64,000 bases of DNA from IMG/VR virus record IMGVR_UViG_3300025018_000001; one strand, 5' to 3'. Of the stretch, positions 1,170-62,296 are shown in pieces (positions within the stretch are counted from its first letter, which is position 1; every line of letters begins with the position of its first letter). The position numbers and the translations under genes are program-made. The notes under the pieces are model-generated. The model saw only the letters and a program-made list of their open reading frames with translations. It was not told where the DNA came from and ran no database searches. The DNA comes from a virus. Lineage: Duplodnaviria; Caudoviricetes.

Positions 1170-1497
1170 TTAATTCCACCTCCTTTAAAGAGGAGTATTT
1201 ACCACATGACCTACAAATAACACCAACTGCATTGGTATGCACTAATACTTCAGCGTCACAGTTAGCACATAATTTAATAGTAGTTTTCTTTGCACCACTA
1301 AATGTAGGTTTAGAAAAAGAAAATGGAAGGTTTTTATGTTTATCTACAAAAGAGGATTCTTTATGAATTCTTGCATTGTGTTTAGCTACACCACCCTCTG
1401 GTTCGTATCTTCTTGGTGCACCTGGGGCCAACTCAGAAGACACTGTAGTTTTAGCTACAAACTTATTTAGATCTTTTTTAAAGGTTTCATTAACCAT
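1162..1497 (-). CDS. Hypothetical protein with C-terminal zinc ribbon
   Basis: CANC...CRSC motif; overlaps neighbours in operon fashion. Confidence 0.6.
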   Translation of the reverse strand: MVNETFKKDLNKFVAKTTVSSELAPGAPRRYEPEGGVAKHNARIHKESSFVDKHKNLPFSFSKPTFSGAKKTTIKLCANCDAEVLVHTNAVGVICRSCGKYSSLKEVELNG

Positions 1498-2065
1498 CAA
1501 ATCTGTCCTCTTGTTTAACTGTAAGTGTTTTTTTACTTGCTACGTAGTCAGATAAGTAAACACATAGCTCCTCTGGTGTATAATCAGATAAAGGTTTCAA
1601 CCAAGGTTTAATACTCCACGGCCCATAATGGTACCCGACACAACTTCTAATCATATTGTAGTCTTTTTCTGATACCAATTTTAAATCTCTGTAAACCTCT
1701 TCTACTAGTTTTGCCCCCAAGTCTGGGTGCCATTTCACAGTATGTCCTGACTTTTCAGTACCTTGTTTTCTAAGATCATGTAAAATACAAGCAGATATTA
1801 TCTGGTCTCTATTATGTTCACAGCTTAAACCCCTAGCAAGGTCATAGGCAATAGTTACTACTCTTTTAGTATGTATAATTGTACCATAACCTGAAAGCTC
1901 ATCTAGAGGATGGTACTTACCTGATGTAGAGGCTGGGGCGGAATAAAATATATAATCCGGTGCCATCATAACACAAACTTCTGTAAAGCTTTTTATATCC
2001 TTGTTAAAAACCAAATCTAACTCAGACTTAAGTGCTGCCAATTTCTCATCTGGAGATAATTCCAT
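1490..2065 (-). CDS. HD-domain phosphohydrolase (YhaM-like)
   Basis: PAS..GKYH...G...HT..V and ACILHDLRK HD motif; AAGGAG RBS. Confidence 0.8.
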   Translation of the reverse strand: MELSPDEKLAALKSELDLVFNKDIKSFTEVCVMMAPDYIFYSAPASTSGKYHPLDELSGYGTIIHTKRVVTIAYDLARGLSCEHNRDQIISACILHDLRKQGTEKSGHTVKWHPDLGAKLVEEVYRDLKLVSEKDYNMIRSCVGYHYGPWSIKPWLKPLSDYTPEELCVYLSDYVASKKTLTVKQEDRFDG

Positions 2066-2488: not shown

Positions 2489-2806
2489 TTAGATTTTTTC
2501 GGTACTATCTTTAAATCTTTTTAAGAAGTCGTCAAACTCTTTTTTGTTTTCAATACTAGCCATAACTTTATTACCATCTGGACCTACTGGAGCTTCTTTA
2601 AAGAAGTTTGCCATGTCCATAACAAAATCAGGAATCATATCACCTTCCCACTCGTAGTTAATATTCATGTATTGATCTTTACCCTTCTTAATACCTACGG
2701 ATGCGTAATTGTAACCATTCTTACTTTTATATAAACTTACATTCATTATTTCCCCAGAATTAAATGCTAGGGCATATTTTGTATCTACCATACTTTTGTC
2801 CTCCAT
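2489..2806 (-). CDS. Hypothetical protein
   Basis: ORF in co-oriented operon. Confidence 0.6.
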   Translation of the reverse strand: MEDKSMVDTKYALAFNSGEIMNVSLYKSKNGYNYASVGIKKGKDQYMNINYEWEGDMIPDFVMDMANFFKEAPVGPDGNKVMASIENKKEFDDFLKRFKDSTEKI

Positions 2807-3381
2807 ATATAAGATAGTTGATTTCTTAGATCTTCTAATGTACCATCATTAGTGATACAAACTCTATTATCATGCGACATAAAAGATGGTAGAGCATTTT
2901 CAGATATGTGTTCTTGATTATTAACAAAAGTACGGTCTTCCCTTTCAATATGGATATGTAGACCATTTGCTTCATCTAAAACCCAATCTATTTCATTAGC
3001 AAATCTTCCATCAGTTATAATTGTATTAGCTGCGTCACTACCAAAAAGAGCATTACTTTTTATAACATTAACCCAACAGTCTGGGTTAATTTTTCTAAAT
3101 ACATCTGTACCAATAAACTGCAAAAGCTCCCTAGGTGTCCAAAATCTTTCTTGTTCTAGGTGGATAGCTGAATGTATTTTAAGCCCCTCAATAGGCTGTT
3201 CCTTAGCATCACCATATAGCTGTTCCTGGGTTAATAAAAAACACTTACCTAATATATTTTTAAGAAAATCTGCATAAGCCACAACTCTAACAGTTTTTTT
3301 ATTTTCATAAAACATATCTCTTAATATACATGCTACTGTATCCTTACCTGACCTTGCCTTACCACTTAATACTATTATCAT
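2785..3381 (-). CDS. Deoxynucleoside monophosphate kinase (T4 gp1-like)
   Basis: P-loop LSGKARSGKDT, TPRELLQFIGTDVFR, IITDGRFANE motifs. Confidence 0.85.
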   Translation of the reverse strand: MIIVLSGKARSGKDTVACILRDMFYENKKTVRVVAYADFLKNILGKCFLLTQEQLYGDAKEQPIEGLKIHSAIHLEQERFWTPRELLQFIGTDVFRKINPDCWVNVIKSNALFGSDAANTIITDGRFANEIDWVLDEANGLHIHIEREDRTFVNNQEHISENALPSFMSHDNRVCITNDGTLEDLRNQLSYIWRTKVW

Positions 3382-3383
3382 AT

Positions 3384-3809
3384 CTAGCCTTCCCATTTAG
3401 TTATTAAATCACTATGTAATACTGCCAAATAAATACTTTGATACTCCTCAAACAATGTGTCGTTTTTAGAAAACAATGTAGATATATCCACAGTTACAGC
3501 AGCATTTGATTCTATGAAGTCTGTAAATGTTTTTATTTTAGCCTCTAAAGTTCGAAGTAGATGAAGTGCTTCGAACACACTAAGTTCTACATTACTAACA
3601 CTAATATATGTTTCTTTATTTAAATTGTCTATTAATATATCATGACTACGAATTTTACTTAACAACTCAAATTTATAAGATACTGCATTAGTATACAAAT
3701 CAGGAGTTCTACTTGTGTCAAAACTACTTATGTACTTGATATATCTATTTATAGTTTTTAGTTTGTCATCTAAGTAGCGCTTCCTTAAAAGTATTTCACG
3801 TAGTATCAT
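3384..3809 (-). CDS. Hypothetical helical protein
   Basis: ORF in operon. Confidence 0.6.
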   Translation of the reverse strand: MILREILLRKRYLDDKLKTINRYIKYISSFDTSRTPDLYTNAVSYKFELLSKIRSHDILIDNLNKETYISVSNVELSVFEALHLLRTLEAKIKTFTDFIESNAAVTVDISTLFSKNDTLFEEYQSIYLAVLHSDLITKWEG

Positions 3810-18417: not shown

Positions 18418-18422
18418 CCCTG

Positions 18423-19012: not shown

Positions 19013-19019
19013 TACCGAG

Positions 19020-19634: not shown

Positions 19635-19640
19635 CCCACT

Positions 19641-19740: not shown

Positions 19741-19926
19741 ATGGCTATTAAAAGAGTTGTTACCCGTATCTGTCAATGTTGTGGTGAAAGAAAAGCTATC
19801 CCTGAGGGAGCTAACTATTGCACCAGTTGTTCTAGTCCATCCGCGTTTGCATCCGTGATGGATACTAGAAACAGTGGCGCATCTTTCGCAATTAAATCTA
19901 TAACAAAAGGAGGTCGTCATGATTAA
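19741..19926 (+). CDS. Small zinc-ribbon protein
   Basis: CQCC...CTSC. Confidence 0.55.
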   Translation: MAIKRVVTRICQCCGERKAIPEGANYCTSCSSPSAFASVMDTRNSGASFAIKSITKGGRHD

Positions 19927-20008
19927 GGCCTATTTACTTTTAGCTACTTTCTTTCTAGCCCCGTTCATCTGGTTTATATTTGACCTGTTGAGTATGGTGC
20001 CTAAGTGA
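19919..20008 (+). CDS. 29-aa hydrophobic peptide
   Basis: Not in the track; MIKAYLLLATFFLAPFIWFIFDLLSMVPK with GGAGG RBS. Confidence 0.5.
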   Translation: MIKAYLLLATFFLAPFIWFIFDLLSMVPK

Positions 20009-20019
20009 GTAACTTAAAC

Positions 20020-20111
20020 GTTGGACCGCTGCCCTTTGGTAGTGGTCCAGCTTTTTTGAATGAGCACCGCCTATCTTGGGCAACGCTCTCAACTCCATAT
20101 GGAGGTTTCAC
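20020..20111 (+). promoter_or_regulatory. Repeated intergenic module copy 6 (type B leader)
   Basis: Hairpin+T6, TAGTGGTCC-N9-G(20058), GAGC..GCCT-ATCTT-GGGC..GCTC, CTCC-ATAT-GGAG. Confidence 0.8.
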
Positions 20112-20375
20112 ATGCCTTATTCAATATTCGATGTTATGCAAGCAGCCCGCAAAGCACGCCCTGAAGTCAAATGGGAATATGCTAAGCTCAATGACGCCAT
20201 CTCAGAGATGATGCCCGTTGAGTACGATGGTCTTTGGTCACCTGGTAGGCTTTGTGCCCATTACAGTGTTGACACTGACTCAGTACTCAAGGTAGACAAC
20301 TACTGCGTGGATATCAACAACCGCTTCCCGTCTAAGGAAGAAGCTCAGGCTTACATCGACGCCCTTGTATTCTAA
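20112..20375 (+). CDS. Hypothetical protein
   Basis: Start re-set to MPYSIF after GGAGG. Confidence 0.6.
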   Translation: MPYSIFDVMQAARKARPEVKWEYAKLNDAISEMMPVEYDGLWSPGRLCAHYSVDTDSVLKVDNYCVDINNRFPSKEEAQAYIDALVF

Positions 20376-20379
20376 CCAC

Positions 20380-20480
20380 ATACTGTACCGCTGCCATTTG
20401 GTAGTGGTACAGTATTTTTGATGAGGCTGACATATCGTTGGCCTTCAAACCATTGCGCTTAATGCGCTAAGGAGATTGAT
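20380..20480 (+). promoter_or_regulatory. Repeated intergenic module copy 7
   Basis: Hairpin+T, TAGTGGTAC-N9-G(20420), AGGCTGAC-ATATC-GTTGGCCT, GCGC/GCGC, TAAGGAG. Confidence 0.85.
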
Positions 20481-20711
20481 ATGGAAATTTCTAAACTGAA
20501 GGTAATGCGTTCAGCTGCTGGTTATTACATTGGTAGAAGTTGTACTAATGATGACATGCCTGGCTTTGAAGAGCCTTACTCACGGGAGAGTGGTTACTAT
20601 CCCAACGAGGCAGCAGCTACGGCTGACCTGCATACCTTTGACGTCCGTGATTGTGCTGAGAATGAGTATGCATATGAAACTGGCGCCATTAAACGTCCTT
20701 ACAGGCCTTAG
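20481..20711 (+). CDS. Small phage protein (MRSAAGYYIG...PYSRES type)
   Basis: Motif familiar from uncharacterised phage/plasmid proteins. Confidence 0.6.
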   Translation: MEISKLKVMRSAAGYYIGRSCTNDDMPGFEEPYSRESGYYPNEAAATADLHTFDVRDCAENEYAYETGAIKRPYRP

Positions 20712-20721
20712 GAGGTGTACC

Positions 20722-20946
20722 ATGCAGAGTGACACTGTTACGTATACCAGAGCACATGTGGAGTTGTTAGTGAAACTTGCCTTCGTAAGGGGGCAAGAAT
20801 TCGCTACAGCAAATATGCTTAAAGATGCTACCGAACGCGTAGCTTTAGCCATAGGAGCTAAGTATGAGCACGTACAACCAGAAGCAGCTGAGGATAGTGC
20901 AGTTGTTGAAAGAAAAACAGGATGTACTGCAAGCGCCTGTGCCTGA
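20722..20946 (+). CDS. Hypothetical protein
   Basis: AGGAGG RBS, start MQSDT. Confidence 0.55.
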   Translation: MQSDTVTYTRAHVELLVKLAFVRGQEFATANMLKDATERVALAIGAKYEHVQPEAAEDSAVVERKTGCTASACA

Positions 20947-21119
20947 AGGTGTTGATGAATACACGGCTGCCTGTGATGAGGAAGCCACGTTGTATTACAT
21001 TGACAAAGAGATAATGGAACTTAGGCGTAGTACAAGCGCCTAAGTATTTATAACAGCAACAACCCTGGGGGTAGTACAATCTCCTGGGGTTGTTGTCTAA
21101 TGTAACCGGTAATACAATG

Positions 21120-21197
21120 AAGGTACCATTCTTGTGGTACAGGTTTTTTGAGATAATCTCATCTCACCAAAGCAATCATAAGCAAAGGAGAATTAAC
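21120..21197 (+). promoter_or_regulatory. Repeated intergenic module copy 8 (type C leader)
   Basis: GTACCA/TGGTAC, TTGTGGTAC-N9-G(21150), GAGAT/ATCTC hairpin, AAAGGAG. Confidence 0.7.
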
Positions 21198-21365
21198 ATG
21201 GCTAAGTCAGTTAAGAAACAATCACCGTCAAGAGAGCGCCTTATCAAAGTCCTGGACCGTAAGGCAGTAGATGCCCTGGATTTGAAGGAGGCCATAGAGA
21301 ACGGTATATACTCGAAGAGCGTAAGAGTTGTTGAGCCTAAGCTCTGGGAAGAGCGCTACTATTAA
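21198..21365 (+). CDS. Hypothetical protein
   Basis: Start re-set to MAKSVK. Confidence 0.55.
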   Translation: MAKSVKKQSPSRERLIKVLDRKAVDALDLKEAIENGIYSKSVRVVEPKLWEERYY

Positions 21366-21372
21366 TATTCAC

Positions 21373-21452
21373 CCTGTGCCAGCTTTCATAGTGGTACAGG
21401 TTTTTTGAGGCAATTCCGTCTCACCAACGCCAATTATGGCAAAGGAGTTATT
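21373..21452 (+). promoter_or_regulatory. Repeated intergenic module copy 9 (type C leader)
   Basis: CCTGTGCCA/TGGTACAGG+T6, TAGTGGTAC-N9-G(21407), GAGGC/GTCTC, AAAGGAG. Confidence 0.75.
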
Positions 21453-21695
21453 ATGAAGAATTTAACCTTTAAGCAGCTTATTATCCTCTATGTAACGTGT
21501 ACACTTCTCTTAGGCGCGGCGTGCGGTATAGCCGTTTTCAAACTCTATTTCCGCGAAGTCACTTTCATATCTGTGACCTGTAAGAATCCAGAGTTGAGTT
21601 ATACTGAACGTTTAGACGTTGAGGGAGATTTCAAGTGTAATTGGTCATCATTAGACTTGAATAACCATTACGTATTATCCATTGGAGATAAGTAA
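21453..21695 (+). CDS. Membrane-anchored small protein
   Basis: N-terminal TM. Confidence 0.55.
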   Translation: MKNLTFKQLIILYVTCTLLLGAACGIAVFKLYFREVTFISVTCKNPELSYTERLDVEGDFKCNWSSLDLNNHYVLSIGDK

Positions 21696-21696
21696 T

Positions 21697-21861
21697 ATGA
21701 CTGACCCTATGGATATATGTATATGGCCTGATTGTACTTGGTGTCATGAGGAAGACATCGAGGAGTACCAATGGAAGTCAGATGATTTCAGAGTGGCTAC
21801 TATTAGTGGTACCATGTCTGATGATAGAATTGAAGACCTGGTTACTCAGGGATTACTGTAA
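21697..21861 (+). CDS. 54-aa acidic protein
   Basis: Not in the track; MTDPMDICIWPDCTWCHEE...; GGAG RBS. Confidence 0.45.
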   Translation: MTDPMDICIWPDCTWCHEEDIEEYQWKSDDFRVATISGTMSDDRIEDLVTQGLL

Positions 21862-21893
21862 GTTCAACGCCAATATTGGCAAAGGAGATCGTC

Positions 21894-22097
21894 ATGATTA
21901 AATGGATTGATAAGTCTTTGGATAAGGTTGAGAGAGCAGCAGCTAATGCACGTGCAGCCCTTAGAGAAAAGGAAGACCTTAAGAAGCAGTTAGTTATTGC
22001 AACAGCTGCGTTAAAGCATATATACGAAAGGCCTGACTCTGAGTGCCCACCTAAAGAAGCAGCTAAAGATGCCCTTCAACAGATGGGGTTATTATGA
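21894..22097 (+). CDS. Coiled-coil small protein
   Basis: GCC/GGC hairpin + AAAGGAG leader. Confidence 0.55.
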   Translation: MIKWIDKSLDKVERAAANARAALREKEDLKKQLVIATAALKHIYERPDSECPPKEAAKDALQQMGLL

Positions 22098-22648
22098 AAT
22101 ATGCAGGTATTGGGTCACGCGAGACACCCGCTAACGTCTTGCAAGTAATGTCCGACATAGCTGTATTAATGGCTATTGACGGGCATATCTGTTGTACTGG
22201 GGCTGCTCTTGGTGCTGACCAAGCTTTTGCTAACGGCGCCAACAGAGTACACGGGGCTATTGAACTATCTATCCCTTGGAATACGTATGAGTTCGCTTGG
22301 TCTTGTACATTGCATAATGTCAAATCAACGGCATATGATGCTAATGTACACAAAGCAGCAGCTGACTCTGTACATAAGTTTCATCCGTATGCAGCTAAAC
22401 TAAAGCAAGGTGCATTCAAGCTCCACGCACGTAACTATCTTATTATAGATGGTTGTGCTTTGGTTATATGCTGGACTACTGATGGTAAAGCCTCAGGTGG
22501 CACAGGACAGGGAATTCGTATTGCAGAGAGCCTTGGTATACCTGTGTACAACTTGGGCAATGCGGAGGTACTACAGGCCTTCGTAGACCGTATAAATGCG
22601 CGTCGTCATGAAATCACGGCGTATACTAAACACTCAGCGCCTGAGTAG
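22094..22648 (+). CDS. SLOG/DprA-like nucleotide-binding protein
   Basis: YAGIGSRETP, TGAA.GADQAF, HARN, GGTGQ..RIA..GIPVYNL. Confidence 0.75.
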   Translation: MKYAGIGSRETPANVLQVMSDIAVLMAIDGHICCTGAALGADQAFANGANRVHGAIELSIPWNTYEFAWSCTLHNVKSTAYDANVHKAAADSVHKFHPYAAKLKQGAFKLHARNYLIIDGCALVICWTTDGKASGGTGQGIRIAESLGIPVYNLGNAEVLQAFVDRINARRHEITAYTKHSAPE

Positions 22649-22661
22649 GCAAGGAGGTTGT

Positions 22662-23072
22662 ATGGATTTGTTAAGCGCTATAATGTGGCTAACGTTGAAC
22701 ATTTATCACGAAGCACGAGGAGAAGACCAAATTGGTCAGATAGCTGTTGCTCATGTTACATTGAATAGAGTACATAACAGAGACCAATCAGTTAAAGAAG
22801 TAGTTCTAGCACCATATCAGTTTAGTTGGACTTTAAATGAAAGTTGGACCCCCAAGAATATGGAGGCTCTACTGGAATGTTTAGAAAGTGCAACGGTGGC
22901 TATTCAAGGACATGACTTCACTCAAGGTGCTACACATTATCATCGAGCTGATATTCATCCATACTGGGCAGATAAGATGATTTATCTAGGTCAATTTGGT
23001 GATCATAAGTTCTACCGCAAGAAAGTACATCTTATAGCTTCAAAGGTTAAGAAGCTTCGTAAAAAGCACTAA
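22662..23072 (+). CDS. Cell wall hydrolase, SleB/CwlJ family
   Basis: NIYHEARGE..GQIAVAHV.LNR, YQFSW, GATHYH, HKFY. Confidence 0.88.
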   Translation: MDLLSAIMWLTLNIYHEARGEDQIGQIAVAHVTLNRVHNRDQSVKEVVLAPYQFSWTLNESWTPKNMEALLECLESATVAIQGHDFTQGATHYHRADIHPYWADKMIYLGQFGDHKFYRKKVHLIASKVKKLRKKH

Positions 23073-23078
23073 CACCTG

Positions 23079-23175
23079 AGCTGTACCGCTAGTTTTTATA
23101 GTGGTACAGCTTTTTTGATAATGTTCACATATCGTGGACATACAAAACCAAAGGCTTATGCCAAAGGAGTGTGTT
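23079..23175 (+). promoter_or_regulatory. Repeated intergenic module copy 10
   Basis: Hairpin+T6, TAGTGGTAC-N9-G(23117), ATGTTCAC-ATATC-GTGGACAT, GGC/GCC, AAAGGAG. Confidence 0.85.
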
Positions 23176-23547
23176 ATGAACGCTTATTCTGTAGATGCAC
23201 GTGGTAACGTTATTGCTGCTACTAAGAACGTAAAAATTAAAGTACGTGAACTTATGATAGCACAAGAAGACCTTATCATTGCAAAGATTTTCGCAGGAAG
23301 GCATCTCCCAGACAGTAACCCTGTTGCTGTTACCAAACCTGTTAAGTTCCACAGGTCATCCAAAAAACGTCTCGAAAAGTTCTTCATTGAATATAAGAAA
23401 CGTTACAACAGTAGTCAGGCACCTTCACAATTCAACGTGAGGATTCTATGTACACAACTGAAGAGTAATCCTAAGTTTAGTTGGTGTCATGATCCGTCTG
23501 ATGCTATGTTGAAAACTCTCGTTGGTTTCTGTATTAATAACTTCTAA
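23176..23547 (+). CDS. Hypothetical protein, paralogue A
   Basis: C-terminus F.WC...SD..L..L..FC..NF shared with the next gene. Confidence 0.65.
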   Translation: MNAYSVDARGNVIAATKNVKIKVRELMIAQEDLIIAKIFAGRHLPDSNPVAVTKPVKFHRSSKKRLEKFFIEYKKRYNSSQAPSQFNVRILCTQLKSNPKFSWCHDPSDAMLKTLVGFCINNF

Positions 23548-23592
23548 TTTAAATTCACAGCCCGGTGTAACAGCCGGGCAATGGAGATCCTC

Positions 23593-23991
23593 ATGTTTGA
23601 AAATGAAATCGCAGATGCACAAGGTGTGGTAATGGCTAAGTTACAAGAACTACAAATGGCTTCAGATATACTAGCTATTTGGAAAACTAGACAAGCATTA
23701 GCATACAATGCGGCTCAATGCAATGCAGCAGATAAAACAGTACTTCCTGCTAATGCAAAGGCAACCAAAACAATCAGGTTCAAAAAGACTGGTTATACAG
23801 TTGCAACTGCTAAACGTAAGAAAGGTTTTCTTATATTTGTACATGCACGAATTTCTACACCACCATCATTTGAAGATGTTCAAAGATTGGTAAAAGATGC
23901 AGCAGACTCATATGCTACGTTTAGGTGGTGTAAAGGTTTATCAGATGTTTCTATACTTGGTCTCTATCAATACTGCAAAAGCAACTTTTAA
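23593..23991 (+). CDS. Hypothetical protein, paralogue B
   Basis: See previous; GCCCGG hairpin leader. Confidence 0.65.
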   Translation: MFENEIADAQGVVMAKLQELQMASDILAIWKTRQALAYNAAQCNAADKTVLPANAKATKTIRFKKTGYTVATAKRKKGFLIFVHARISTPPSFEDVQRLVKDAADSYATFRWCKGLSDVSILGLYQYCKSNF

Positions 23992-24034
23992 TCAATTCAC
24001 AGCCCGGTGAAATATCCGGGCACAGGAGAACATC

Positions 24035-24217
24035 ATGGCTGATATCATCGTTACTGCTGACACAATTACTACTTTACGTCGTCGCCTTGTAGATAAACTT
24101 TGCAAAGACAATTTGTTTGCACTTTCTGTTATTGGTTTTGCTATGCGCAAAGGTAAAATCAAATACATCGACCTTATGACTGAAGACGCAGCTAAACTCT
24201 TGACCCAATCCAAATAA
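24035..24217 (+). CDS. Hypothetical protein
   Basis: GCCCGG hairpin + CAGGAG leader. Confidence 0.55.
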   Translation: MADIIVTADTITTLRRRLVDKLCKDNLFALSVIGFAMRKGKIKYIDLMTEDAAKLLTQSK

Positions 24218-24254
24218 ACCTCAGCGCCCTCTTCGGAGGGCATAGGGGAAGTAC

Positions 24255-24566
24255 ATGAACAACTTATTAAAATTGTACAGAGAGCTGAAACCTGAGAATA
24301 ATGAAGAAGCCAAACTCGCAGTTGTACTTGCCGCTGCTGAGGTTTCATTTCCCCTTGGTTGTAAAGTGAAAGTAATGGGAACAGGTTATATTGCTGAGGT
24401 TGTGAAGTACAACAAAAACCTCGGTGGATTTTATCCTGGTGTACGTTATCCTGTTCTTGTAAAGATTATACGGTCAAAGGATAAGAAGTTCAGGAAAGCA
24501 GTTGGAATGATATTCGAGTATACACCTGACCAGCTCAAAAAGATTAAGGTGAAGGCTAATGTCTAG
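24255..24566 (+). CDS. Hypothetical protein
   Basis: UUCG hairpin leader. Confidence 0.55.
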   Translation: MNNLLKLYRELKPENNEEAKLAVVLAAAEVSFPLGCKVKVMGTGYIAEVVKYNKNLGGFYPGVRYPVLVKIIRSKDKKFRKAVGMIFEYTPDQLKKIKVKANV

Positions 24567-24753
24567 AATCATTCTAATAACCGGTCATTATCCTATTATT
24601 GTTAATGGAGAAGACACAGGTAAAACGGAATTCGTTGTATCTCACGGTATTAATGAAGATACTGGAGATGCTATTATACTACCTAATGATCCACCTCATA
24701 CATTCGAAGGTTCTTACTATAGTCCTGAAATGAATGAGTGGATTCTACCATAA
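24559..24753 (+). CDS. Hypothetical protein
   Basis: Overlaps upstream stop. Confidence 0.5.
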   Translation: MSRIILITGHYPIIVNGEDTGKTEFVVSHGINEDTGDAIILPNDPPHTFEGSYYSPEMNEWILP

Positions 24754-24764
24754 GGAGCTTTATC

Positions 24765-24992
24765 ATGTCATCAGAAGAATTAACATGCTCAGTTTGTGAA
24801 CGAGCTGGTTGTGAATGTATTTGTGATTTGGTTGTTAATAAAGAAGATTATGATGCCGTTGTACATCTGGCAAAGAAACTTCTTAAAGGCGCCAACATCT
24901 GTATGGAAGAACAATCTTTAATCCAGCCTTTCTTCTCTATTGTAAAGGACAATGCTGCTATCATCGGTAAGTTGAATCTATTCGATGAATAA
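24765..24992 (+). CDS. Small Cys-containing protein
   Basis: TAAGGAG RBS. Confidence 0.5.
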   Translation: MSSEELTCSVCERAGCECICDLVVNKEDYDAVVHLAKKLLKGANICMEEQSLIQPFFSIVKDNAAIIGKLNLFDE

Positions 24993-25150
24993 CAAGACTC
25001 CCTGCCAGGCACTAGCCTGGTGGGGTTTCTTCATCTTTTTTAAAAAACCCTGGAGCTTCGTGAAGAACTCTTGTGGTAGTTCGAACGTGGGGACCCTGCA
25101 GCTTCGGGCCGAGTACCGTGCTAGTACCATCGCTGTTTGGGGATGGGGAT

Positions 25151-25169
25151 TAGTGGTACGGGTTTTTTG
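25151..25169 (+). promoter_or_regulatory. TAGTGGTAC-N9-G box
   Basis: Same box, spacing and T-run as the modules. Confidence 0.7.
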
Positions 25170-25210
25170 AGTATAGTCTATGTTTATCCACCAATTTAAA
25201 GGAGTTTGCT

Positions 25211-25450
25211 ATGAAACTAGTTCAGCTTGTTGTATTCATTTCTGTGGTTCTTTACGGCCAGTTCGTTTTCGCGGCTATATCTTACGAGAAAATCAGCTGT
25301 CTTGTGGGCGATTCAGTTATGTTCTTGACCGTTCCTATGGACAGTAACTGGGACAATTTGCAAATGGAGGATGCGGGCAAAGCAGTATGCGAGTCAATGG
25401 CGTTGGTAAGAATAATTCCGGGGCAGGTACTTGATGCAGAGGAGGAGTAA
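25211..25450 (+). CDS. Small secreted protein
   Basis: Signal peptide; AAAGGAG. Confidence 0.55.
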   Translation: MKLVQLVVFISVVLYGQFVFAAISYEKISCLVGDSVMFLTVPMDSNWDNLQMEDAGKAVCESMALVRIIPGQVLDAEEE

Positions 25451-26299
25451 ATGGAAGCATGGACGGCGCAGTACCGTTATACTGGACCCTATAGACTGGA
25501 TGTTACGGTCAAAGGTCAGGACATGACGGGTAAGTTATTCGCACCTACTTGGGATATGGTCATGAATTATAAGGCATCCAAGGGAACGGAAGCGGATAAA
25601 AAGATTTACATTGAGCAGTACCATAAGGTAATTCTTAATGTAATCAAAAATCATCGCAAGGAATGGGATGAATTGCTGGCACGCAAGTACGTGGTGATTG
25701 TGTGCTTTTGTAAGGCAGGTGAGTTTTGTCATAGACACCTGCTAATGCATTACCTTACACAGTATGGTGCTGTATGCCATGGGGAGATTACTGACTTCTC
25801 ACGCTGGAGCAAAGAACGTAAGGTGATTAGTGAATTCAAAGGCCAATACGGTTGGGCATCCAACTTCGCGCCGTGTAAGTTCACGCATGAGAACATTGAA
25901 TATGATTCTACCGAGACATTTTATCAGGCAATGAAGTATGGGCCTAATGATATGTTGAAGATTAAGGTGGATAATAAATTCATTGAAGTCAATGCACGTG
26001 AGTATATTTCCAAACTACCGGCGGGTAAAGCCAAACGCATGGGCAAGAAAGCAAAACTGCCTTGGAACTGGGACACCCTGCGAGTGGATGTTATGGAACT
26101 TGCGTTGAATTACAAGTATGACCAGCCTTACTACAAAAGTCTGTTGCTTAGAACGGACGATGCCTTGATGATTGAAGGCAATTGGTGGCATGACAATTTT
26201 TGGGGAGACTGCTCCTGCCCTAAGTGCGAGCATATCAAAGGTGCAAATACGCTTGGTCAGTTGACTATGCGTAAGCGTGATGCACTACGGAAAGTTTAA
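25451..26299 (+). CDS. DUF488-like domain fused to NADAR (YbiA-like) domain
   Basis: VIVCFC...FCHRHLL N-terminal; F.G.Y..SNF, ETFYQAMK, LLLRT...IEGNWWHDNFWG C-terminal. Confidence 0.8.
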   Translation: MEAWTAQYRYTGPYRLDVTVKGQDMTGKLFAPTWDMVMNYKASKGTEADKKIYIEQYHKVILNVIKNHRKEWDELLARKYVVIVCFCKAGEFCHRHLLMHYLTQYGAVCHGEITDFSRWSKERKVISEFKGQYGWASNFAPCKFTHENIEYDSTETFYQAMKYGPNDMLKIKVDNKFIEVNAREYISKLPAGKAKRMGKKAKLPWNWDTLRVDVMELALNYKYDQPYYKSLLLRTDDALMIEGNWWHDNFWGDCSCPKCEHIKGANTLGQLTMRKRDALRKV

Positions 26300-26301
26300 C
26301 A

Positions 26302-26320
26302 TAGTGGTACTGCTCTTTCG
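26302..26320 (+). promoter_or_regulatory. TAGTGGTAC-N9-G box within a hairpin
   Basis: GTGGTACT/AGTATCAC stem. Confidence 0.65.
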
Positions 26321-26360
26321 GGAGTAGTATCACACTCAATTCTAACGAAGGAGAATTTGT

Positions 26361-27917
26361 ATGAATCATTACAATGAAGTTGCTGGGGTTCTTGAAACAG
26401 GTGCTGAATTAGTATCTCCTCATCTGCGTTGGTTAATTCGTAACGCAATTCTGGAGCACTGCGGACCTGCGGCAGTAAATCTGATTGCTTACAATGAGTC
26501 AGTCCCTGCTGAACACTACGGCATAGCTCATGCACCAAGCAAATCTCTGGTGTTGAATCTTGAGAAGCATTTCTACAATGCCGTCATCAAGGTTCAGGAA
26601 GATGAGAATATGTATGCATCACTGCGTACACTAATTCTCCATGAGCTTTTGGACACTGCCAAGCATGAAGCACATCATCTGCTGGTAGCTTTCGAAGAAG
26701 GTAACTTTGAAGATAGCGACCTTGACGAAGAAGGTGCTAAAGTTGCGGGCAAACTTTCATGGCAGGTTGCACGTGATTGGGATGTTAACATAGTCCTATT
26801 CGGCACATTCCTTGATACGCTTATTGATGATTTCATTGCTGATGTCAAAGAAGCTACCTTGGAAACACCAACCATGTGGAAAGACCTGCAGGTATACATG
26901 CATGAGAATTGTCTGGGGTATTACAATCCAGATAAAGATATGGAACTCTCAATCATGAATACTTTCGAGGCCCTTGCCAAAGATGACAATCCATGGATGA
27001 CGGAACCTGCTAAGTTCCTTGATACTACTATCTGCGAAACTGAACGCACTCAGGTGCCAACAGTTCCTGCGGTGGACGGTATTGATATACCTGTGGATAA
27101 TTACGAGTCGCAGATGCCTATTCATCCTCAAGAAGTTACTCCTGCGGGTATGAGTATGTTTGAAGCTTTGGCTCTGGTGCAAAACAGTGGAGCACAGCCT
27201 ATAATCAGTCAAAGTACTTTCGAAAGATTTATGGCGCAGTCATTAAAGGAGGATGGGTACGTACCACCCTCACTACCTGCTATGGGTGATTCTTATCCAG
27301 TGTACGATGGCGGTGATGACTATGACTGGAATGAAGAGCCTGAATTGGCGCCTGTTGCTCCGATAACTCCGGTCATGCAACCTATGACACAAACAGCTCC
27401 TGTAGCTCCTGTAGCTCAAGGTGCTGGTGGCCATGGCATGGCTAAGGTTATCGAAACGGTATTCCGTACTATATTCTGGCATGTAGTCAATAAAGGTGAA
27501 TTCACACATGAGGGTAGTTATAATAACCCTGCGGTTGTGATGCAACCTGTTAGTATTGCACACATTCCGGGTGCTTTGGATATATTCACCAACATGGATA
27601 CCTTGGACAAGAATGGTAAGTATGCCAAGAATCAGCCGTGTTCCATGGGTATAACTGGTATGTTAACTAAGGAAATGCTTCCTAAGTATACCATGTTCCT
27701 GAACATTGCTGGAACCGTTCACCGACGCTCATTGGTTGCACAAAATCCGAATGCAGTTGACGGACAAGGTGCACTCAAAACTTGGGCGAAGGAAGCTCGT
27801 CAAGGTACCAAGATTATGTACGTACTTGGTGATGAGAAAAATCCCGGAGTTCGTGCAAGTATTAAGCTCACTGCTGGAAGTCCTCTCGGTCAGGAGGAAT
27901 ACAAGCTGTGGACCTGA
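26361..27917 (+). CDS. Large hypothetical protein with HExxH motif and acidic/Pro linker
   Basis: KHEAHHLL; AAGGAG RBS. Confidence 0.7.
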   Translation: MNHYNEVAGVLETGAELVSPHLRWLIRNAILEHCGPAAVNLIAYNESVPAEHYGIAHAPSKSLVLNLEKHFYNAVIKVQEDENMYASLRTLILHELLDTAKHEAHHLLVAFEEGNFEDSDLDEEGAKVAGKLSWQVARDWDVNIVLFGTFLDTLIDDFIADVKEATLETPTMWKDLQVYMHENCLGYYNPDKDMELSIMNTFEALAKDDNPWMTEPAKFLDTTICETERTQVPTVPAVDGIDIPVDNYESQMPIHPQEVTPAGMSMFEALALVQNSGAQPIISQSTFERFMAQSLKEDGYVPPSLPAMGDSYPVYDGGDDYDWNEEPELAPVAPITPVMQPMTQTAPVAPVAQGAGGHGMAKVIETVFRTIFWHVVNKGEFTHEGSYNNPAVVMQPVSIAHIPGALDIFTNMDTLDKNGKYAKNQPCSMGITGMLTKEMLPKYTMFLNIAGTVHRRSLVAQNPNAVDGQGALKTWAKEARQGTKIMYVLGDEKNPGVRASIKLTAGSPLGQEEYKLWT

Positions 27918-28149
27918 TACGAACTGGCATTGTATTAAACGCTAGGGAAATCCGAAATGAATTTGGGTACACACATAAGTATCCGAATTCATTTGGGAAA
28001 GGCACAAAGGTGTGGATTCACTATGACAATAGTGGAAACATACTTAAGATTGAACCTATGGAGGTTTGTGGGGAGTAGTGGTACTGCTCTGTGATGGTTT
28101 GGGTTCTGCTGTTCCCTGCTGTTTCGTTCTCCTTTCCCTGCCCCTTCTT

Positions 28150-28182
28150 GGGGGTGGGGATGGGGATGGGGATTTTGGGGGA
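28150..28182 (+). repeat. G-tract array (potential G-quadruplex)
   Basis: GGGGG-T-GGGG-AT-GGGG-AT-GGGG-ATTTT-GGGGG immediately before a TAGTGGTAC-N9-G box (28183-28201). Confidence 0.65.
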
Positions 28183-28267
28183 TAGTGGTACTGGGTTGAT
28201 GATGGGCTTGTGGGTGTTCCCTTGCCTTGTTGTACTTTCGTTTTATCATTTTTTAAGGAGATTTATC

Positions 28268-29215
28268 ATGAGTAATGCATCCAAATTCGTAGCTATTGCT
28301 GTTGCTGTACGTGCCGCTGGTTCCAAGAATGCCGCTACCGGTCAGTCTCATGGTGGTGTTTACTACCCAGAGCACGTTGTGAATGGCGTCAAGAACACTG
28401 CGCGCTTTGAGGCTAATGTGTATATTAACGGTATGAATTACACCGACCCTGAAACCGGCACCGTGAAGGAAGGACGGAATGAAATCGTGCGCATCGTTGC
28501 GTGGAATGGCCGTAATGCTAAGCCGGGTTCTGGACTCGCTGACCTGTGTGCAAAGGCTATCACCAAAGGCAAAGAGTTCTCCTGTGAGCTGGACATCCGC
28601 ACCTTCAAAAAGCGTTTGTTCATTGACGACAAACCTCAGGTTGACCATATGGGTCGTGAGATTCTTGTCAACGGTACCAACTTTGTCATGAAAGGTCTCC
28701 CTATCTGGGGAAATGATTCTGACCAAGTTATCCTTGACGAAATTCAGAACTACCGTCAGACCGGTCAGGCTACTTTTGCCGCTCGTCCACCTTTCTGGAA
28801 TGTTGTTGGTCATGCTGACGCCGCTATCTGGGATGTTATCAAGAAGTCCCGTCGTGCCGCTCAGTATATTCCGGGTAGCACCACTTTCGGTCATGCCCGT
28901 GTTGTAGTTCCGAATGGTGCTCAGCTCCTGAATGCTGGTGGTAACGCTGGCAACATGGACCAAGCCGGTCTTATGGCGATGCTTCAAGCATTGATGGCTG
29001 GTCAGCAGAAACCGGCTCCTGTTGCAGTACCTGAACCTGTTGCTCCTGTTGTTCAGACTCCTGCTCTTCCTGCCGGTATCGACCCTGCTATGATGGCAGC
29101 TCTTCTGGCTCAGTTCGGTGGGGGTGCTACTCCTGCTGTTCAGACTCCTGCTGTTCAGACTCCGCCTGTTACTGCCGCCGCTGGTTCTGTACTCAACGGT
29201 CAGATGCCTATCTAA
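28268..29215 (+). CDS. Putative single-stranded DNA-binding (OB-fold) protein with Pro/Ala/Gln tail
   Basis: VRIVAW...LADLCAKAITKGKEFSCELDIRT parallels the SSB pattern W...LAE....L.KG..V..EG.LRT. Start re-set to 28268; the upstream in-frame extension is a non-coding G-rich leader. Confidence 0.5.
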   Translation: MSNASKFVAIAVAVRAAGSKNAATGQSHGGVYYPEHVVNGVKNTARFEANVYINGMNYTDPETGTVKEGRNEIVRIVAWNGRNAKPGSGLADLCAKAITKGKEFSCELDIRTFKKRLFIDDKPQVDHMGREILVNGTNFVMKGLPIWGNDSDQVILDEIQNYRQTGQATFAARPPFWNVVGHADAAIWDVIKKSRRAAQYIPGSTTFGHARVVVPNGAQLLNAGGNAGNMDQAGLMAMLQALMAGQQKPAPVAVPEPVAPVVQTPALPAGIDPAMMAALLAQFGGGATPAVQTPAVQTPPVTAAAGSVLNGQMPI

Positions 29216-29224
29216 TCTCTTCCT

Positions 29225-29266
29225 TGTGCCGTGCCATCCTTCGGGGTGGTGCGGTACATTTTTTCT
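29225..29266 (+). terminator. Intrinsic terminator
   Basis: 15-bp stem, TTCG loop, T-run. Confidence 0.85.
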
Positions 29267-29602
29267 TTTTTAAGTGGCTTCGCTAAGAAACAGCAGGTAC
29301 CCTGGGGGTGTTAGCTTAGGTGGTCGGTTATACTATCATTAGGTCATTGGTTGGAGGATACGCTTTGTCTAGCTTACTGTTTCATTTCTTCGGAATTTTC
29401 GGTGGTACGTTTTATTTTTTTCTTTACAGCTGGCCTATGGTTAAAGACGTTACTGGGAAGTTTGGCCTGGAGGAGTTGCCGCTTTTTTGTTCTCTAGACC
29501 GGATCGTGATTCATACCTGTGACTTTTTACAGATGGTTACTTTTGGGCAGGGATTATTATGTGGGAAGAATTAGTATCTTTAACTAACCTCCCCACTATT
29601 TA

Positions 29603-30238
29603 CTATTGTATAAATTCTGCATTAACTATGTCCATGTCCCATGCTGGGGGTGGGGTGGCTGCTTTATATTGGTCACGTACTTTAACAAAGACTTTAAATA
29701 GTTTCTCATTTGTTAAATGCTCATCTTTTAAAACAGTGCATTGGATTTCATTACCATACTTTTGTACGAATTCATATACTTTTTGTCTAGTTATACCTTT
29801 GGTAAGTTCTTCAACGGGCGCGGTAACAATAACATCTGGGCTTGATAAAGTTGCTATAACTTCTTCAAACTCTGCAATGATTTTTGCAAGTACTGCTCTG
29901 TGTTCTTCTATAGTAATATATTTAGTAGTATCTACTACACAATCATTAGTAGTACTATTATCTACCATTGGTACATCAAGTGGTACCAAATTGTTGGTAC
30001 ATGTACCAACTTTTTTAGTATCAGACTTGGTACATGTACCAACTTTTTGTGCACGCTTGTATGATTGTCTTAATGTATTTGCCTTAACAGTGGCACCATC
30101 ATTCTTTGCATTGAACTCTTCTGCTACTTGTTTACATGCTTTATTTACGGATAAACCTCCTACTACTAATTTAGTTACTGCGTCTAAAGCGGATTCACCA
30201 CAGATGTCTACATTAATTTTTACTTTGCAATCGCTCAT
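29603..30238 (-). CDS. HTH DNA-binding protein (lone minus-strand gene)
   Basis: GLSVNKACKQVA...ANTLRQSYKR helix-turn-helix-like; AAGGAG RBS before MSDCK. Confidence 0.55.
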   Translation of the reverse strand: MSDCKVKINVDICGESALDAVTKLVVGGLSVNKACKQVAEEFNAKNDGATVKANTLRQSYKRAQKVGTCTKSDTKKVGTCTNNLVPLDVPMVDNSTTNDCVVDTTKYITIEEHRAVLAKIIAEFEEVIATLSSPDVIVTAPVEELTKGITRQKVYEFVQKYGNEIQCTVLKDEHLTNEKLFKVFVKVRDQYKAATPPPAWDMDIVNAEFIQ

Positions 30239-34085: not shown

Positions 34086-34508
34086 ATGCACAAACCAAAT
34101 TTCAATGCTGGAGACCTTGTAGACCATAATGCTGTGTCTGCTATTATTAAGAATGATGCTGGTGAAGTACTAGTATTTTTTCATCATAAGTATCAGGAGT
34201 GGACAATACCTGTTGGTAAGGCTGAACAAGGTCAGACTGTTGAAGATGCTTTACGTATGGAAATTTCAGAAGAATGCGGTCTTGAACTTATCTCTTTCAA
34301 AAAGGATCTTATTAAGAAGTATGTCTACCCGCGTGAGAAAAAAGATATTAACGTGGAATTACACCAGTTTACTGTAGATAAATACTCTGGTATACCTCAA
34401 AACCTTGAACCTAAGAAGCATTCTAATATGCAGTTTATGTCTGTAAACGAGCTGCAAAAATTGGATAATAGGATGGATGTATTAGATTTATTTCTCTCTA
34501 CCCAGTAG
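34086..34508 (+). CDS. Nudix hydrolase
   Basis: W.IP.GKAEQGQTVEDALRMEISEECGL, a degenerate Nudix box; EP.KH C-terminal motif. Confidence 0.8.
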   Translation: MHKPNFNAGDLVDHNAVSAIIKNDAGEVLVFFHHKYQEWTIPVGKAEQGQTVEDALRMEISEECGLELISFKKDLIKKYVYPREKKDINVELHQFTVDKYSGIPQNLEPKKHSNMQFMSVNELQKLDNRMDVLDLFLSTQ

Positions 34509-43227: not shown

Positions 43228-43845
43228 ATGGAAGAATTAGAGCTACGTGTTAAAGATCTACAAGATCTTATGGCTAGTACAGATGATTTTTGTACTAAAG
43301 TATGTAAACTCTGCAAAGGTTCAGATGTACCATGTAAAGAAAGACTATTAGTTGCTTTAATAGATAAAGATGCTAAAATAGCAGGACTATCTTCATCTTA
43401 TCGCAAAGTAAAAATGGAATTGGAGGAATTAAAACGTACCAATGCAGCTAAATATGTACCTAAAAAGAAAAAGGGTCCTTATAATAAACTCAAAAAGTTC
43501 AATATAGCTGAAGTACTACCAAAAATAGGAGGGCATAAAAAATTTATAGTGACTCCTGAGGTGAGCGTCAACACATACAGTGTACGATTACGTACATTTA
43601 AACGGAGTACTATATGTGTTAGATGTGGTCTAAAAGGTACACACTTTTGGGCAGAAAGTAATCACAATATGAATAATTATCATCTAAATCTCTACGCAAC
43701 AAATGAACACGGCCATGAGGTGCTGATGACTAAAGATCATATTATACCTAAGTCTAAAGGTGGGGCGGACACATTGGCTAACATGCAGACAATGTGTACT
43801 AAATGTAACTTAAAGAAAGGCAACCAATTGGATGGCACCTGGTGA
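43228..43845 (+). CDS. HNH endonuclease
   Basis: CVRC...TKDHIIPKSKGG.DTL.NMQTMC.KCN.KKGN. Confidence 0.88.
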   Translation: MEELELRVKDLQDLMASTDDFCTKVCKLCKGSDVPCKERLLVALIDKDAKIAGLSSSYRKVKMELEELKRTNAAKYVPKKKKGPYNKLKKFNIAEVLPKIGGHKKFIVTPEVSVNTYSVRLRTFKRSTICVRCGLKGTHFWAESNHNMNNYHLNLYATNEHGHEVLMTKDHIIPKSKGGADTLANMQTMCTKCNLKKGNQLDGTW

Positions 43846-44547: not shown

Positions 44548-45558
44548 ATGATTCGCTTATACTCTGGTAAATTTAATTTATTAATTGACGGGCAGTTTGG
44601 TAGCACTGGTAAAGGTTTACTCGCAAACTTTATTGGTGTATTTAACCATGTCGATATTGCCGTAAGTAATGCCAGCTCTAATGCGGGTCATACCTTTTAT
44701 GACGCTGATGGGAAGAAAATTATTGTGAAACATCTACCTGTCAGCGGCATAGTAAACAAACGCAGCTTAATTTATTTATGTGCTGGGTCTATAATTGATC
44801 TCGAAATTCTATTAAAAGAAATAGAGGAAAACAATATCGACCATGCCAGAATAGCTATACACCCACGAGCTGCAGTGATTTCCAAGAAGGACATTGAAGA
44901 AGAGAAGTTAAACAACAATGGTGTAAAGAAAATTGCATCCACAATGAGTGGGGTAGGTAGTGCATTAGTTAACAAAATAAATAGAGCCGCTAAGCTTGCT
45001 AAAGATATACCAGAACTTAGTAGATATATTTCAGAAGTTGACCTGCATTATTATATGCAACAAGGATGTACGGTACTAATGGAGGTACCTCAAGGTCTTG
45101 ACTTATCATTAAATCATGGCTTAGCTTATCCATACTGTACAAGTCGTGATATTACAATAGCAGCTGCTATGAATGACGCCGGTGTCCACCCTAAATGGTT
45201 AGGAAAGGTTGCTGTATCAATACGGACCTTTCCAATAAGGGTTGGTAATGTAGTCGAGAATGGTATTGAAGTTGGTTACTCAGGTCCATTTTATCCAGAT
45301 AGTGTTGAAACATCTTGGGAAAAATTAGGCTTACCAAAAGAATTTACCACTCGTACTAATCGTGTCAGAAGAGTTGCTACATTCTCACATATTCAGTATA
45401 AAAGAATGTTAGATTTACTATCGCCTGATTATGTATTCCTTAATTTCTGTAATTATTTAACAAGAAAAAAGATTGATGATATGTTAAAAATATTACCAGA
45501 GGTTACACATGTAGGTTTTGGTCCTACTATTAATGATATTCTACCTGTTAACAGGTAA
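44548..45558 (+). CDS. purZ: PurZ-like (2-aminoadenine pathway) adenylosuccinate-synthetase homologue
   Basis: GQFGSTGKG (Ser where PurA has the catalytic Asp of GDEGKG), NAGHT, YPYCTSRD, PIRVG, RRV..FS, FLNFCNY, GFGPT.ND; short 336-aa PurZ-type length. Confidence 0.8.
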   Translation: MIRLYSGKFNLLIDGQFGSTGKGLLANFIGVFNHVDIAVSNASSNAGHTFYDADGKKIIVKHLPVSGIVNKRSLIYLCAGSIIDLEILLKEIEENNIDHARIAIHPRAAVISKKDIEEEKLNNNGVKKIASTMSGVGSALVNKINRAAKLAKDIPELSRYISEVDLHYYMQQGCTVLMEVPQGLDLSLNHGLAYPYCTSRDITIAAAMNDAGVHPKWLGKVAVSIRTFPIRVGNVVENGIEVGYSGPFYPDSVETSWEKLGLPKEFTTRTNRVRRVATFSHIQYKRMLDLLSPDYVFLNFCNYLTRKKIDDMLKILPEVTHVGFGPTINDILPVNR

Positions 45559-60872: not shown

Positions 60873-60958
60873 GTAAAACAAGTGGAAGAAAAGTATAGGA
60901 CTTTTAGTGTAATGCTAAGTTGATTCAATTATCACTTCTTCTAAATAAAGGAATAAAC

Positions 60959-62296
60959 ATGACTATAGAGCAAGAGATTATAAAAAGGTTAGATGCAGCA
61001 GGATTCCAAGTTTTCATTGTAGGTGGTGCGATTAGAGATGAAATACTTGGTTTACCTATTAATGATATTGACTTTGCCACTAATGCAAGGCCAGAACAAA
61101 TTATTAAATTGTTCAAAGGAAAAAACATAGGGGTTGTAGGTAAAAGTTTTAAAGTTGTATTTGTAGAAGGAGTACAGATAGCCACATTCAGAAAAGATGT
61201 ACAGAACGTATTCTTTAGTGCAAAATTTTGTGAGCCTGTTTACGCAGATACAATACAAGAAGACCTTGAAAGAAGGGATCTAACTATGAACGCCATGGCA
61301 AGAGATGCCGTAACTGATGAGTTCTTTGACCTACATGGTGGTGTAGATGATATTCGTAATGGTATAATACGTTTAGTAGGCGACCCTATTGAACGAATTC
61401 AGCAAGATCCTAATAGAATAGTAAGAGCCTGTAGATTACTAGCTAAAACTGAAGGAATCTTTGCACCAGAGACTTATGCAGCATTATGTGAATGTGCTGT
61501 GTATATAAAGCGACATGTTGAAGCAGAACGCCTCTGTGATGAGATTATGAAAGCTATGGAGGTAAGGACACCTTCGCTGTTCTTTAGTGCTCTACACACT
61601 ATAGGGGCGTTAAAATATATATTTCCAGCAATGGCTGACTCGTTTGACTACAGTGGAGGGGAATACCATAAAGAAACTATTGGTGAACATCTAATGATGG
61701 CTGGTGATATTATCTCACCTAGATTTCCAGTACTTAGGTTAGCTGGATATCTGCATGATATAGGTAAACCAAAAGCATTTGATAAAGAAAAAGATGGTAG
61801 TTTTAAAGCCCATGAAGCGTATGGGGCTGAGATGGCCAATAGGTACCTACGCAAATTAAAATTCCCTAATAGTATTACAAATGAGGTTGTTGGGCTGATT
61901 GATAGCCACATGCGCGTCTGCCGTGGGTTAACACCTAAAGGTATCAGACGTTTAAGAAAACATTTAGCGGACTCAAATGTAGACCCTAGAAGCTTTCTAC
62001 GTTTGAAGTTAGCTGATAGGTCTGCAAATATGTACAGGTCACCGAGCGAAATTAAACCAATAAAAGAATTAATAATTAATGCGGGTATTCGTTGTGACCC
62101 TAATGAAGTATCTGTGGTATCCTTGAAAGACTTAGCTATATCTGGTGGAGAATTAATGAAAGAATTCAATTTACCACAGGGTGCTATAATAGGTGAAATA
62201 CATAGGGCATTGTTGGAATTTATTATAGAAGAAGGCGATGAATTCAATACCTATGATATATTGAGAAATAAAGCGAAAGAGTTACTACAACAGTAA
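60959..62296 (+). CDS. cca: CCA-adding/poly(A)-polymerase-family nucleotidyltransferase with HD domain
   Basis: VGGAIRD, DIDFAT, EDLERRDLTMNA, DPNRIVR, ERL..E, LHDIGKP. Confidence 0.88.
   Translation: MTIEQEIIKRLDAAGFQVFIVGGAIRDEILGLPINDIDFATNARPEQIIKLFKGKNIGVVGKSFKVVFVEGVQIATFRKDVQNVFFSAKFCEPVYADTIQEDLERRDLTMNAMARDAVTDEFFDLHGGVDDIRNGIIRLVGDPIERIQQDPNRIVRACRLLAKTEGIFAPETYAALCECAVYIKRHVEAERLCDEIMKAMEVRTPSLFFSALHTIGALKYIFPAMADSFDYSGGEYHKETIGEHLMMAGDIISPRFPVLRLAGYLHDIGKPKAFDKEKDGSFKAHEAYGAEMANRYLRKLKFPNSITNEVVGLIDSHMRVCRGLTPKGIRRLRKHLADSNVDPRSFLRLKLADRSANMYRSPSEIKPIKELIINAGIRCDPNEVSVVSLKDLAISGGELMKEFNLPQGAIIGEIHRALLEFIIEEGDEFNTYDILRNKAKELLQQ

Follow-up and report, generated by a model that had tools for sequence, protein, structure and literature searches.

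The PurZ enzymes of phages S-2L and phiVC8 are encoded in a datZ-mazZ-purZ (and dpoZ) cluster in genomes of 39-45 kb. Since S-2L uses PrimPol, DpoZ is not universal among phages whose DNA carries 2-aminoadenine (Z). A related Ser-type group in the PurZ superfamily, PurZ0 (Arthrobacter phage Wayne; Gordonia phage Archimedes, PDB 7VF6), has DutZ/DmtZ/DUF5664 as helpers. To our knowledge, the natural Z-DNA phages studied at the bench are all small (39-83 kb), and in them PurZ is accompanied by enzymes that clear dATP and supply dGMP. From this small-phage picture comes the usual assumption that a phage with PurZ has a fully Z-substituted genome. A 2026 study in NAR found that the helper sets (DatZ/MazZ, DUF550-DUF5664 and DutZ/DmtZ) have been swapped by convergence, and the natural PurZ phages examined chemically to date are all completely Z-substituted (PMC12884076). 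Over 2000 Z viruses have been predicted from PurZ homology alone (PMC13128860).

Here we describe a purZ gene that stands alone in a 64,000-nucleotide stretch of phage DNA (the window), which is part of a 264-kb phage. The window phage and its clade separate PurZ from the known helpers in genomes of up to about 290 kb. The PurZ system and the convergent helper swaps are known; the lone PurZ in a clade of large phages is new, and our literature search found no description of PurZ in jumbo phages or of a helper-less PurZ clade. The gene is as follows:

44548..45558, plus strand: purZ, a dSMP (succino-amino-deoxyadenylate) synthase homologue with an ATG start, 336 aa; best HMM, PurZ NF038379

A reading made from the sequence alone had named four motifs in this frame, and all were present: GQFGSTGKG at residues 15-23, NAGHT at 45-49, YPYCTSRD at 194-201 and FLNFCNY at 297-303. 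The family match is far beyond chance, with E values of 3.8e-27 against Pfam PF00709 (Adenylsucc_synt) and 2.9e-61 against PHROG 1211 ('2-aminooxy adenylosuccinate synthetase'). The best PDB matches were the PurZ structures of S-2L (7odx, E 8.8e-52) and phiVC8 (6fm1, E 1.8e-51), both aligned over the full length. Weaker matches were obtained with Pyrococcus horikoshii PurA (2.6e-33), PurZ0 (7vf6, 4e-27) and E. coli PurA (about 5e-10). The S-2L and phiVC8 enzymes resemble the window protein in fold, P-loop Ser, dGMP pocket, ATP-type N-F-x-N/Q-Y pocket, the Val and insertion, and side of the tree, although they are only 37-39% identical to it. PurZ0 is 28-32% identical over 76% of the length and differs in its C-terminal nucleotide pocket. 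The closest PurZ from a cultured phage, that of Ochrobactrum phage vB_OspP_OH, has 41% identity.

The top NCBIfam model for the window protein was PurZ NF038379, with 238.2 bits. This score misses the curated cut-off of 300 bits, whereas the phiVC8 control reached 397; across the whole large-phage PurZ clade the model gave 179-238 bits. The curated PurA cut-offs were not reached either, with 185 vs 368 bits for the archaeal-type model PRK04293 and 118 vs 395 bits for TIGR00184. Archaeal-type short PurA (Pyrococcus horikoshii, PDB 5K7X/2D7U) is the second-best model family and shares the architecture of about 340 aa, but its P-loop carries Asp, where the window protein has Ser, and its substrates are IMP and GTP. 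The sub-threshold PurZ score favors the view that the enzyme has drifted to another substrate, such as GMP, dIMP or IMP, and works in ribonucleotide or dATP supply or makes some other purine product rather than Z-DNA. We regard such drift as very unlikely, and the PurA models, which all score lower and far under their own cut-offs, speak against it. The residues discussed next bear on the same question.

The P-loop of the window protein reads G15-Q-F-G-S19-T-G-K-G23, with Ser19 at the position of the catalytic Asp13 of PurA. The Ser column was invariant in the 16 aligned PurZ sequences (16/16), and the PurA outgroups read GDEGKG. Among the nearest 120 homologues (54-100% identity), Ser was found in 114/114 of those with a recognisable P-loop; the other six show none and are perhaps fragments. 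Sites that discriminate PurZ were taken from the metaGPA preprint (bioRxiv 10.1101/2025.10.22.683976) and the phiVC8 structure, and 11 of the 12 are identical in the window protein, including F12, S14, T262, F295 and Y298 (phiVC8 numbering). In phiVC8 PurZ, F12, S14 and T262 are the sites for the 2-amino group and F295 and Y298 those for adenine (bioRxiv 10.1101/2025.10.22.683976).

The S-2L PurZ pocket residues listed in PMC8342488 were mapped onto the window protein, and 27 of the 28 listed dGMP, (d)ATP and aspartate pocket residues are kept, three of them as in phiVC8. The dGMP base pocket is complete (8/8, F17, S19 and T267 being among the conserved positions) and the remainder of the dGMP pocket nearly so (6/7). 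The adenine pocket (5/5) and the triphosphate contacts (4/4) are all present. N299, F300, N302, Y303, G325 and P326 are identical to phiVC8 and form an adenine-type NTP pocket, not the guanine pocket of PurA. The earlier reading of the NFCN-type residues is supported for this protein, whose N-F-C-N-Y pocket is of the ATP type. In S-2L PurZ, a PurZ-specific insertion pushes V241 against C2' and excludes the 2'-OH (PMC8342488). The window protein keeps these features, with V232 (S-2L V241) followed by an insertion, G233-Y244, aligned to S-2L A242-W250. The T-T-x-T tip of the aspartate loop and R280 (S-2L numbering) are present, and the tip reads TTRTN (R269, N271) vs TTVTK in characterised enzymes.

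The altered tip is a second point for substrate drift. Against it, Ser19 stands where PurA needs its general base, and the residues of the 2-amino pocket, the 2'-OH exclusion and the adenine pocket are all kept. The pocket residues give no hint of another purine modification, which had been offered as an alternative to Z. The protein is predicted to be a dSMP synthase, and it very probably has PurZ activity.

A maximum-likelihood tree of 78 PurA, PurZ0 and PurZ sequences was built with IQ-TREE. The tree splits off PurA, then PurZ0 (99/96), then the PurZ side (97/84). Wayne, Archimedes, Hiyaa and L069 make up the PurZ0 clade (99/96), and the window protein lies outside it. The characterised PurZ proteins (phiVC8, S-2L, PMBT28 and Barton) are sister (92/91) to a clade of 51 sequences (100/99) that holds both OH and the window protein, the latter in a sub-clade of 23. 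Lineages on either side of the large-phage group have full DpoZ-PurZ-MazZ-DatZ clusters, and this nesting among classical Z systems is a further argument against substrate drift. With the PurZ model scoring highest and the protein placed in PurZ, apart from PurA and PurZ0, both the profile and the tree bear out the original assignment, which had relied on motifs, among them the one with Ser in place of Asp. By sequence, the window protein is a PurZ-type synthetase and not PurA or PurZ0.

The nearest named or cluster-bearing relatives of the window protein are OH PurZ and the PurZ of uncultured Z-cluster contigs (L041, L042, L046-L048, L052 and others), with 41-50% identity. In OH and these contigs, DpoZ, MazZ and DatZ adjoin PurZ, whereas the 23-sequence sub-clade lacks them. 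Huge phages of 362-377 kb from IMG/VR (L064, L065) are like the window phage in being very large and uncultured, with a PurZ-type gene apart from helpers. Their PurZ proteins form a separate deep PurZ branch with a WGSSGKG P-loop and 33-35% identity to the window protein.

The family as a whole is large, with 2192 proteins at E<=1e-10 in a 90%-identity library and 483 clusters at E<=1e-30 in a 50%-identity library. PurZ-like matches in the cultured-phage collection came from 199 records, all <=83 kb, which fits the statement in the sequence-only reading that characterised Z phages are mostly small. Among the 120 nearest homologues, 18 lie on contigs of at least 50 kb and 8 on contigs longer than any cultured PurZ phage. 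Six homologues (P0143, P0156, P0167, P0178, P0236 and P0260) have lengths of 730-765 aa and align with the query in two blocks set apart from each other, perhaps owing to an intein or other large insertion.

The window is clearly phage DNA, as it encodes a head protease, a tail assembly protein, an endolysin, PhoH, RtcB, DNA ligase, a CCA enzyme and a peptide deformylase. A 264,359-bp metagenomic contig (ENA ERZ17986938 NODE_15) carries a protein identical to the window's PurZ, so the phage is large, as had been supposed. The identical protein is also found on a 147-kb JGI contig and others, 18 contigs in all from several samples, and the gene was called identically in six public assemblies. 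The phage DNA is present in aquifer and cold-spring metagenomes (20 runs listed). Megablast of window DNA against cultured phages, with 2-kb and 25-kb queries, gave no match. Scanning IMG/VR with the PurZ protein as single query was likewise negative, and with RtcB as query the one match was an unrelated 75-kb phage that lacks PurZ. The phage is AT-rich, with about 35% G+C. Most of the window has 30-37% G+C; a block at 18000-30000 has 41-49% and coincides with a switch from minus-strand to plus-strand genes. Within this block, 25451-26299 encodes a DUF488-NADAR fusion, a nucleotide-centred domain, and a NADAR gene is also found near PurZ in L012 and L051.

An HNH endonuclease is encoded at 43228-43845, two genes upstream of purZ. 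In Arthrobacter phage Wayne, an HNH endonuclease (L018:4521-4940) adjoins PurZ just upstream, and such endonucleases may help to carry the gene from one phage to another. The neighboring HNH gene, together with PurZ neighbors that are not conserved between large PurZ phages, could suggest that purZ is a recently acquired passenger that is unexpressed or has no role in the phage. We consider this highly improbable in view of the intact frame and the strong purifying selection: against an 82%-identical homologue, pN was 0.118 and pS 0.79, with synonymous sites saturated. Homologues of 83-87% identity in several assemblies, and the recurrence of the same protein on its 18 contigs, also speak against a passenger.

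The known helpers were sought by tblastn and Pfam in the window and 48 kb downstream, which together make up about 112 of the 264 kb (42%). The sequence-only reading had called for a search for DatZ, MazZ and a DpoZ-like polymerase and had named a dNMP kinase, a Nudix hydrolase and an HD hydrolase as possible support for a Z pool. The genes themselves are indeed there. With a second HD-containing protein and one further candidate, they are:

34086..34508, plus strand: MutT/MTH1-like Nudix hydrolase, 140 aa (PF00293, E 6.5e-15)
2785..3396, minus strand: T4-type dNMP kinase, 203 aa (PHROG 139, E 8e-49; PF21448 DNMK, E 1.4e-22)
1490..2065, minus strand: HD protein, 190 aa (generic PF01966 only)
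60920..62296: CCA enzyme with an internal HD domain
22094..22648: SLOG/DprA-like Rossmann protein (PHROG 768), a nucleotide-centred domain

No homologue of DatZ, MazZ, MazZ-2, DUF550, DUF5664, DutZ/DmtZ or DpoZ was found in the 112 of 264 kb, nor was PolA, and no Dut or NDT homologue was found in the window. Therefore, a full Z genome is not implied. The other very large phages differ in this respect, since those of 362-377 kb encode a YfbR-like DatZ and the 377-kb one (G031) also Dut and PolA, none of which was found in the DNA covered here. The lack of helper genes in this 112 kb could also be counted for substrate drift, as could the NAD/nucleotide salvage genes of the phage, NAMPT and NadM-Nudix; the conserved catalytic and pocket residues described above make drift very unlikely all the same.

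The PDB matches of the Nudix protein, to NTP pyrophosphohydrolases of the MutT/MTH1 type, were weak (E 2.6e-7 to 1e-3). It is a candidate dGTP or dATP pyrophosphohydrolase and might take the place of MazZ or DatZ. The dNMP kinase is a candidate for the step from dZMP to dZDP. On present annotation, these two are the only plausible helpers in the 112 kb covered. No Nudix gene was found in five other large PurZ phages and, thus, Nudix is not a conserved PurZ partner.

The HD protein at 1490-2065 was considered as a DatZ and rejected. It matches only the generic PF01966, and none of five DatZ queries gave a tblastn match. The structures nearest to its AF2 model (pLDDT 91.6) are YhaM exoribonuclease 9h3f (TM 0.68) and CCA-enzyme HD domains, with DatZ not among the top 50 structural matches, and the idea that it stands in for DatZ is not supported. 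Since the model is closest to the HD domain of the YhaM 3'-5' exoribonuclease, the protein probably belongs to the phage's RNA-repair set. It is highly conserved, at 55-92% identity on many 100-325 kb contigs; a search run without a positive control found no homologue in five other large PurZ phages. The SLOG/DprA-like protein at 22094-22648 was tried as a DmtZ analogue and showed no PDB sequence match and no link to PF05014.

The HD proteins downstream of the window are of the SpoT/HD_4 and PgpH-like types. One of them, a stand-alone HD_4 (SpoT/Mesh1-type) protein of 173 aa (L080:14196-14717, about 41 kb past the window end), is likely a small alarmone hydrolase. Its gene neighbors encode Ro60, a PgpH-like HD protein, NadM-Nudix and NAMPT.

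PurZ loci from genomes and IMG/VR were then compared using DatZ, MazZ, DUF550/DUF5664, DutZ/DmtZ and DpoZ queries drawn from phiVC8, S-2L, OH, PMBT28, Barton and Wayne. The loci fall cleanly into two sorts: small contigs with DpoZ-PurZ-MazZ-DatZ contiguous, and the window with its nearest relatives, which have none of these. The helper-less loci were L019 (82% identity), L040 (58%, 142 kb), L061, L045 (52%), L049/L050 and L051, with further examples on 282-kb, 132-kb and 'Pacearchaeota' contigs. The uncultured clade to which the window belongs is mostly found on 50-290 kb contigs with PurZ standing alone. A whole-record profile search found a YfbR-like DatZ in 17 of 30 records; no 83-287 kb record from the window's sub-clade was among the 17. 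A complete relative of 286,688 bp (G012, IMGVR_UViG_3300004151_000006) showed no DatZ, DUF550, MazG, dUTPase_2, HD, Dut, NDT, Nudix or PolA with the profiles PF12917, PF04447, PF03819, PF08761, PF01966, PF00692, PF05014, PF00293 and PF00476; the positive control, PF00709, was detected.

When the ORFs within 10 kb of PurZ at 13 large-phage loci were compared all-vs-all, the one partner that recurred was a RecA-like gene, at 4 loci. In four other large phages, a gene for trimeric Dut is found 2.5-12 kb away from PurZ. We also considered dUTPase_2 (PF08761) as a general partner and rejected it; it occurs near PurZ in two large-phage contexts, and neither the window nor 30 IMG/VR PurZ records contain it.

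Our preferred explanation, held with moderate confidence, is that a working PurZ operates in a lone-gene context, that Z probably enters the DNA and that replacement of A by Z is possibly partial. PurZ would convert dGMP to dSMP, possibly spending dATP as phosphate donor, as S-2L PurZ can do (PMC8342488). Host PurB would then yield dZMP, and kinases (host GMK and NDK, possibly with the phage dNMP kinase) would carry dZMP to dZTP for the phage replisome to insert opposite T. Most polymerases accept dZTP. Without a dedicated dATPase, however, dATP would compete and, therefore, Z might take the place of only part of the A. In E. coli, the complete S-2L triad exchanged no more than 4-12% of A, and the yield of Z from PurZ on its own may thus be small. 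Full substitution would need a helper that has escaped recognition, with a dATP-removing activity, or a selective replisome. Z-DNA in the window phage is plausible and partial substitution is a real possibility. We judge it fairly probable that virion DNA contains Z at a substantial level, and doubtful that A is completely replaced.

Another possible explanation is that PurZ is active and the genome is a natural A/Z hybrid or has only trace Z, with the enzyme mainly reshaping the purine dNTP pool by draining dGMP and dATP and adding dZTP. Such reshaping could weaken restriction or nucleotide-sensing defences even if A is not fully replaced. This is a rather unlikely alternative that agrees with the lone PurZ in the window phage and across its large-phage clade, with the complete relative that has no known helper family, with the low yield of the triad in E. 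coli and with the use of dATP as donor by S-2L PurZ. On the other side, substitution was complete in every natural PurZ phage examined chemically (PMC12884076), the helper search covered 42% of the genome, and the missing dATPase/dGTPase could be the MutT-like Nudix protein or an ORFan.

The preferred reading, a working lone PurZ with Z in the DNA, has two outcomes. If the DNA is fully Z, an adenine-exclusion mechanism is still to be discovered. If replacement is partial, hybrid DNA occurs in nature, and counts of Z genomes based on homology overstate full substitution. We tentatively propose that the large phages (50-290 kb) with a stand-alone PurZ and no known dATP/dGTP-clearing enzymes either have an undescribed form of adenine exclusion (a new hydrolase family or a Z-selecting replisome) or are the first natural mixed A/Z genomes.

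Several PurZ genes were found on contigs assigned to cellular genomes. The closest locus-borne PurZ (82% identical to the window's) lies on a 7.5-kb contig (L019) of an Arcobacter nitrofigilis MAG from a sulfidic cave. This contig also encodes an ADP-ribosylglycohydrolase, an Rnl1 RNA ligase and a dNMP kinase, the last 28% identical to the window's and 1.5 kb upstream of PurZ. Its binning with a low-GC Campylobacterota genome hints at a host group for the 35%-GC window phage. PurZ genes were also seen on MAG contigs labelled Methanosarcinales (L025), Verrucomicrobia (L023), Gottesmanbacteria (L027) and Pacearchaeota (L014), thus including 'archaeal' and 'CPR' labels. These contigs are short and plainly phage, with DpoZ-PurZ-MazZ-DatZ or with a clamp loader, an intein-bearing RNR, RecA and HNH. 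Given this gene content, the labels are probably binning errors, and PurZ attributed to Archaea should be viewed with caution. A PurZ-type gene with 51% identity and a GSTGKG P-loop was found on a 1,000,106-bp contig of an uncultured Micavibrio MAG (L020:5099-7104). It directly follows a two-domain mazG, the pair lies between the housekeeping genes hflX, inositol monophosphatase and M20 peptidase, and the contig also encodes a normal purA. The setting seems to be cellular and not that of a prophage.
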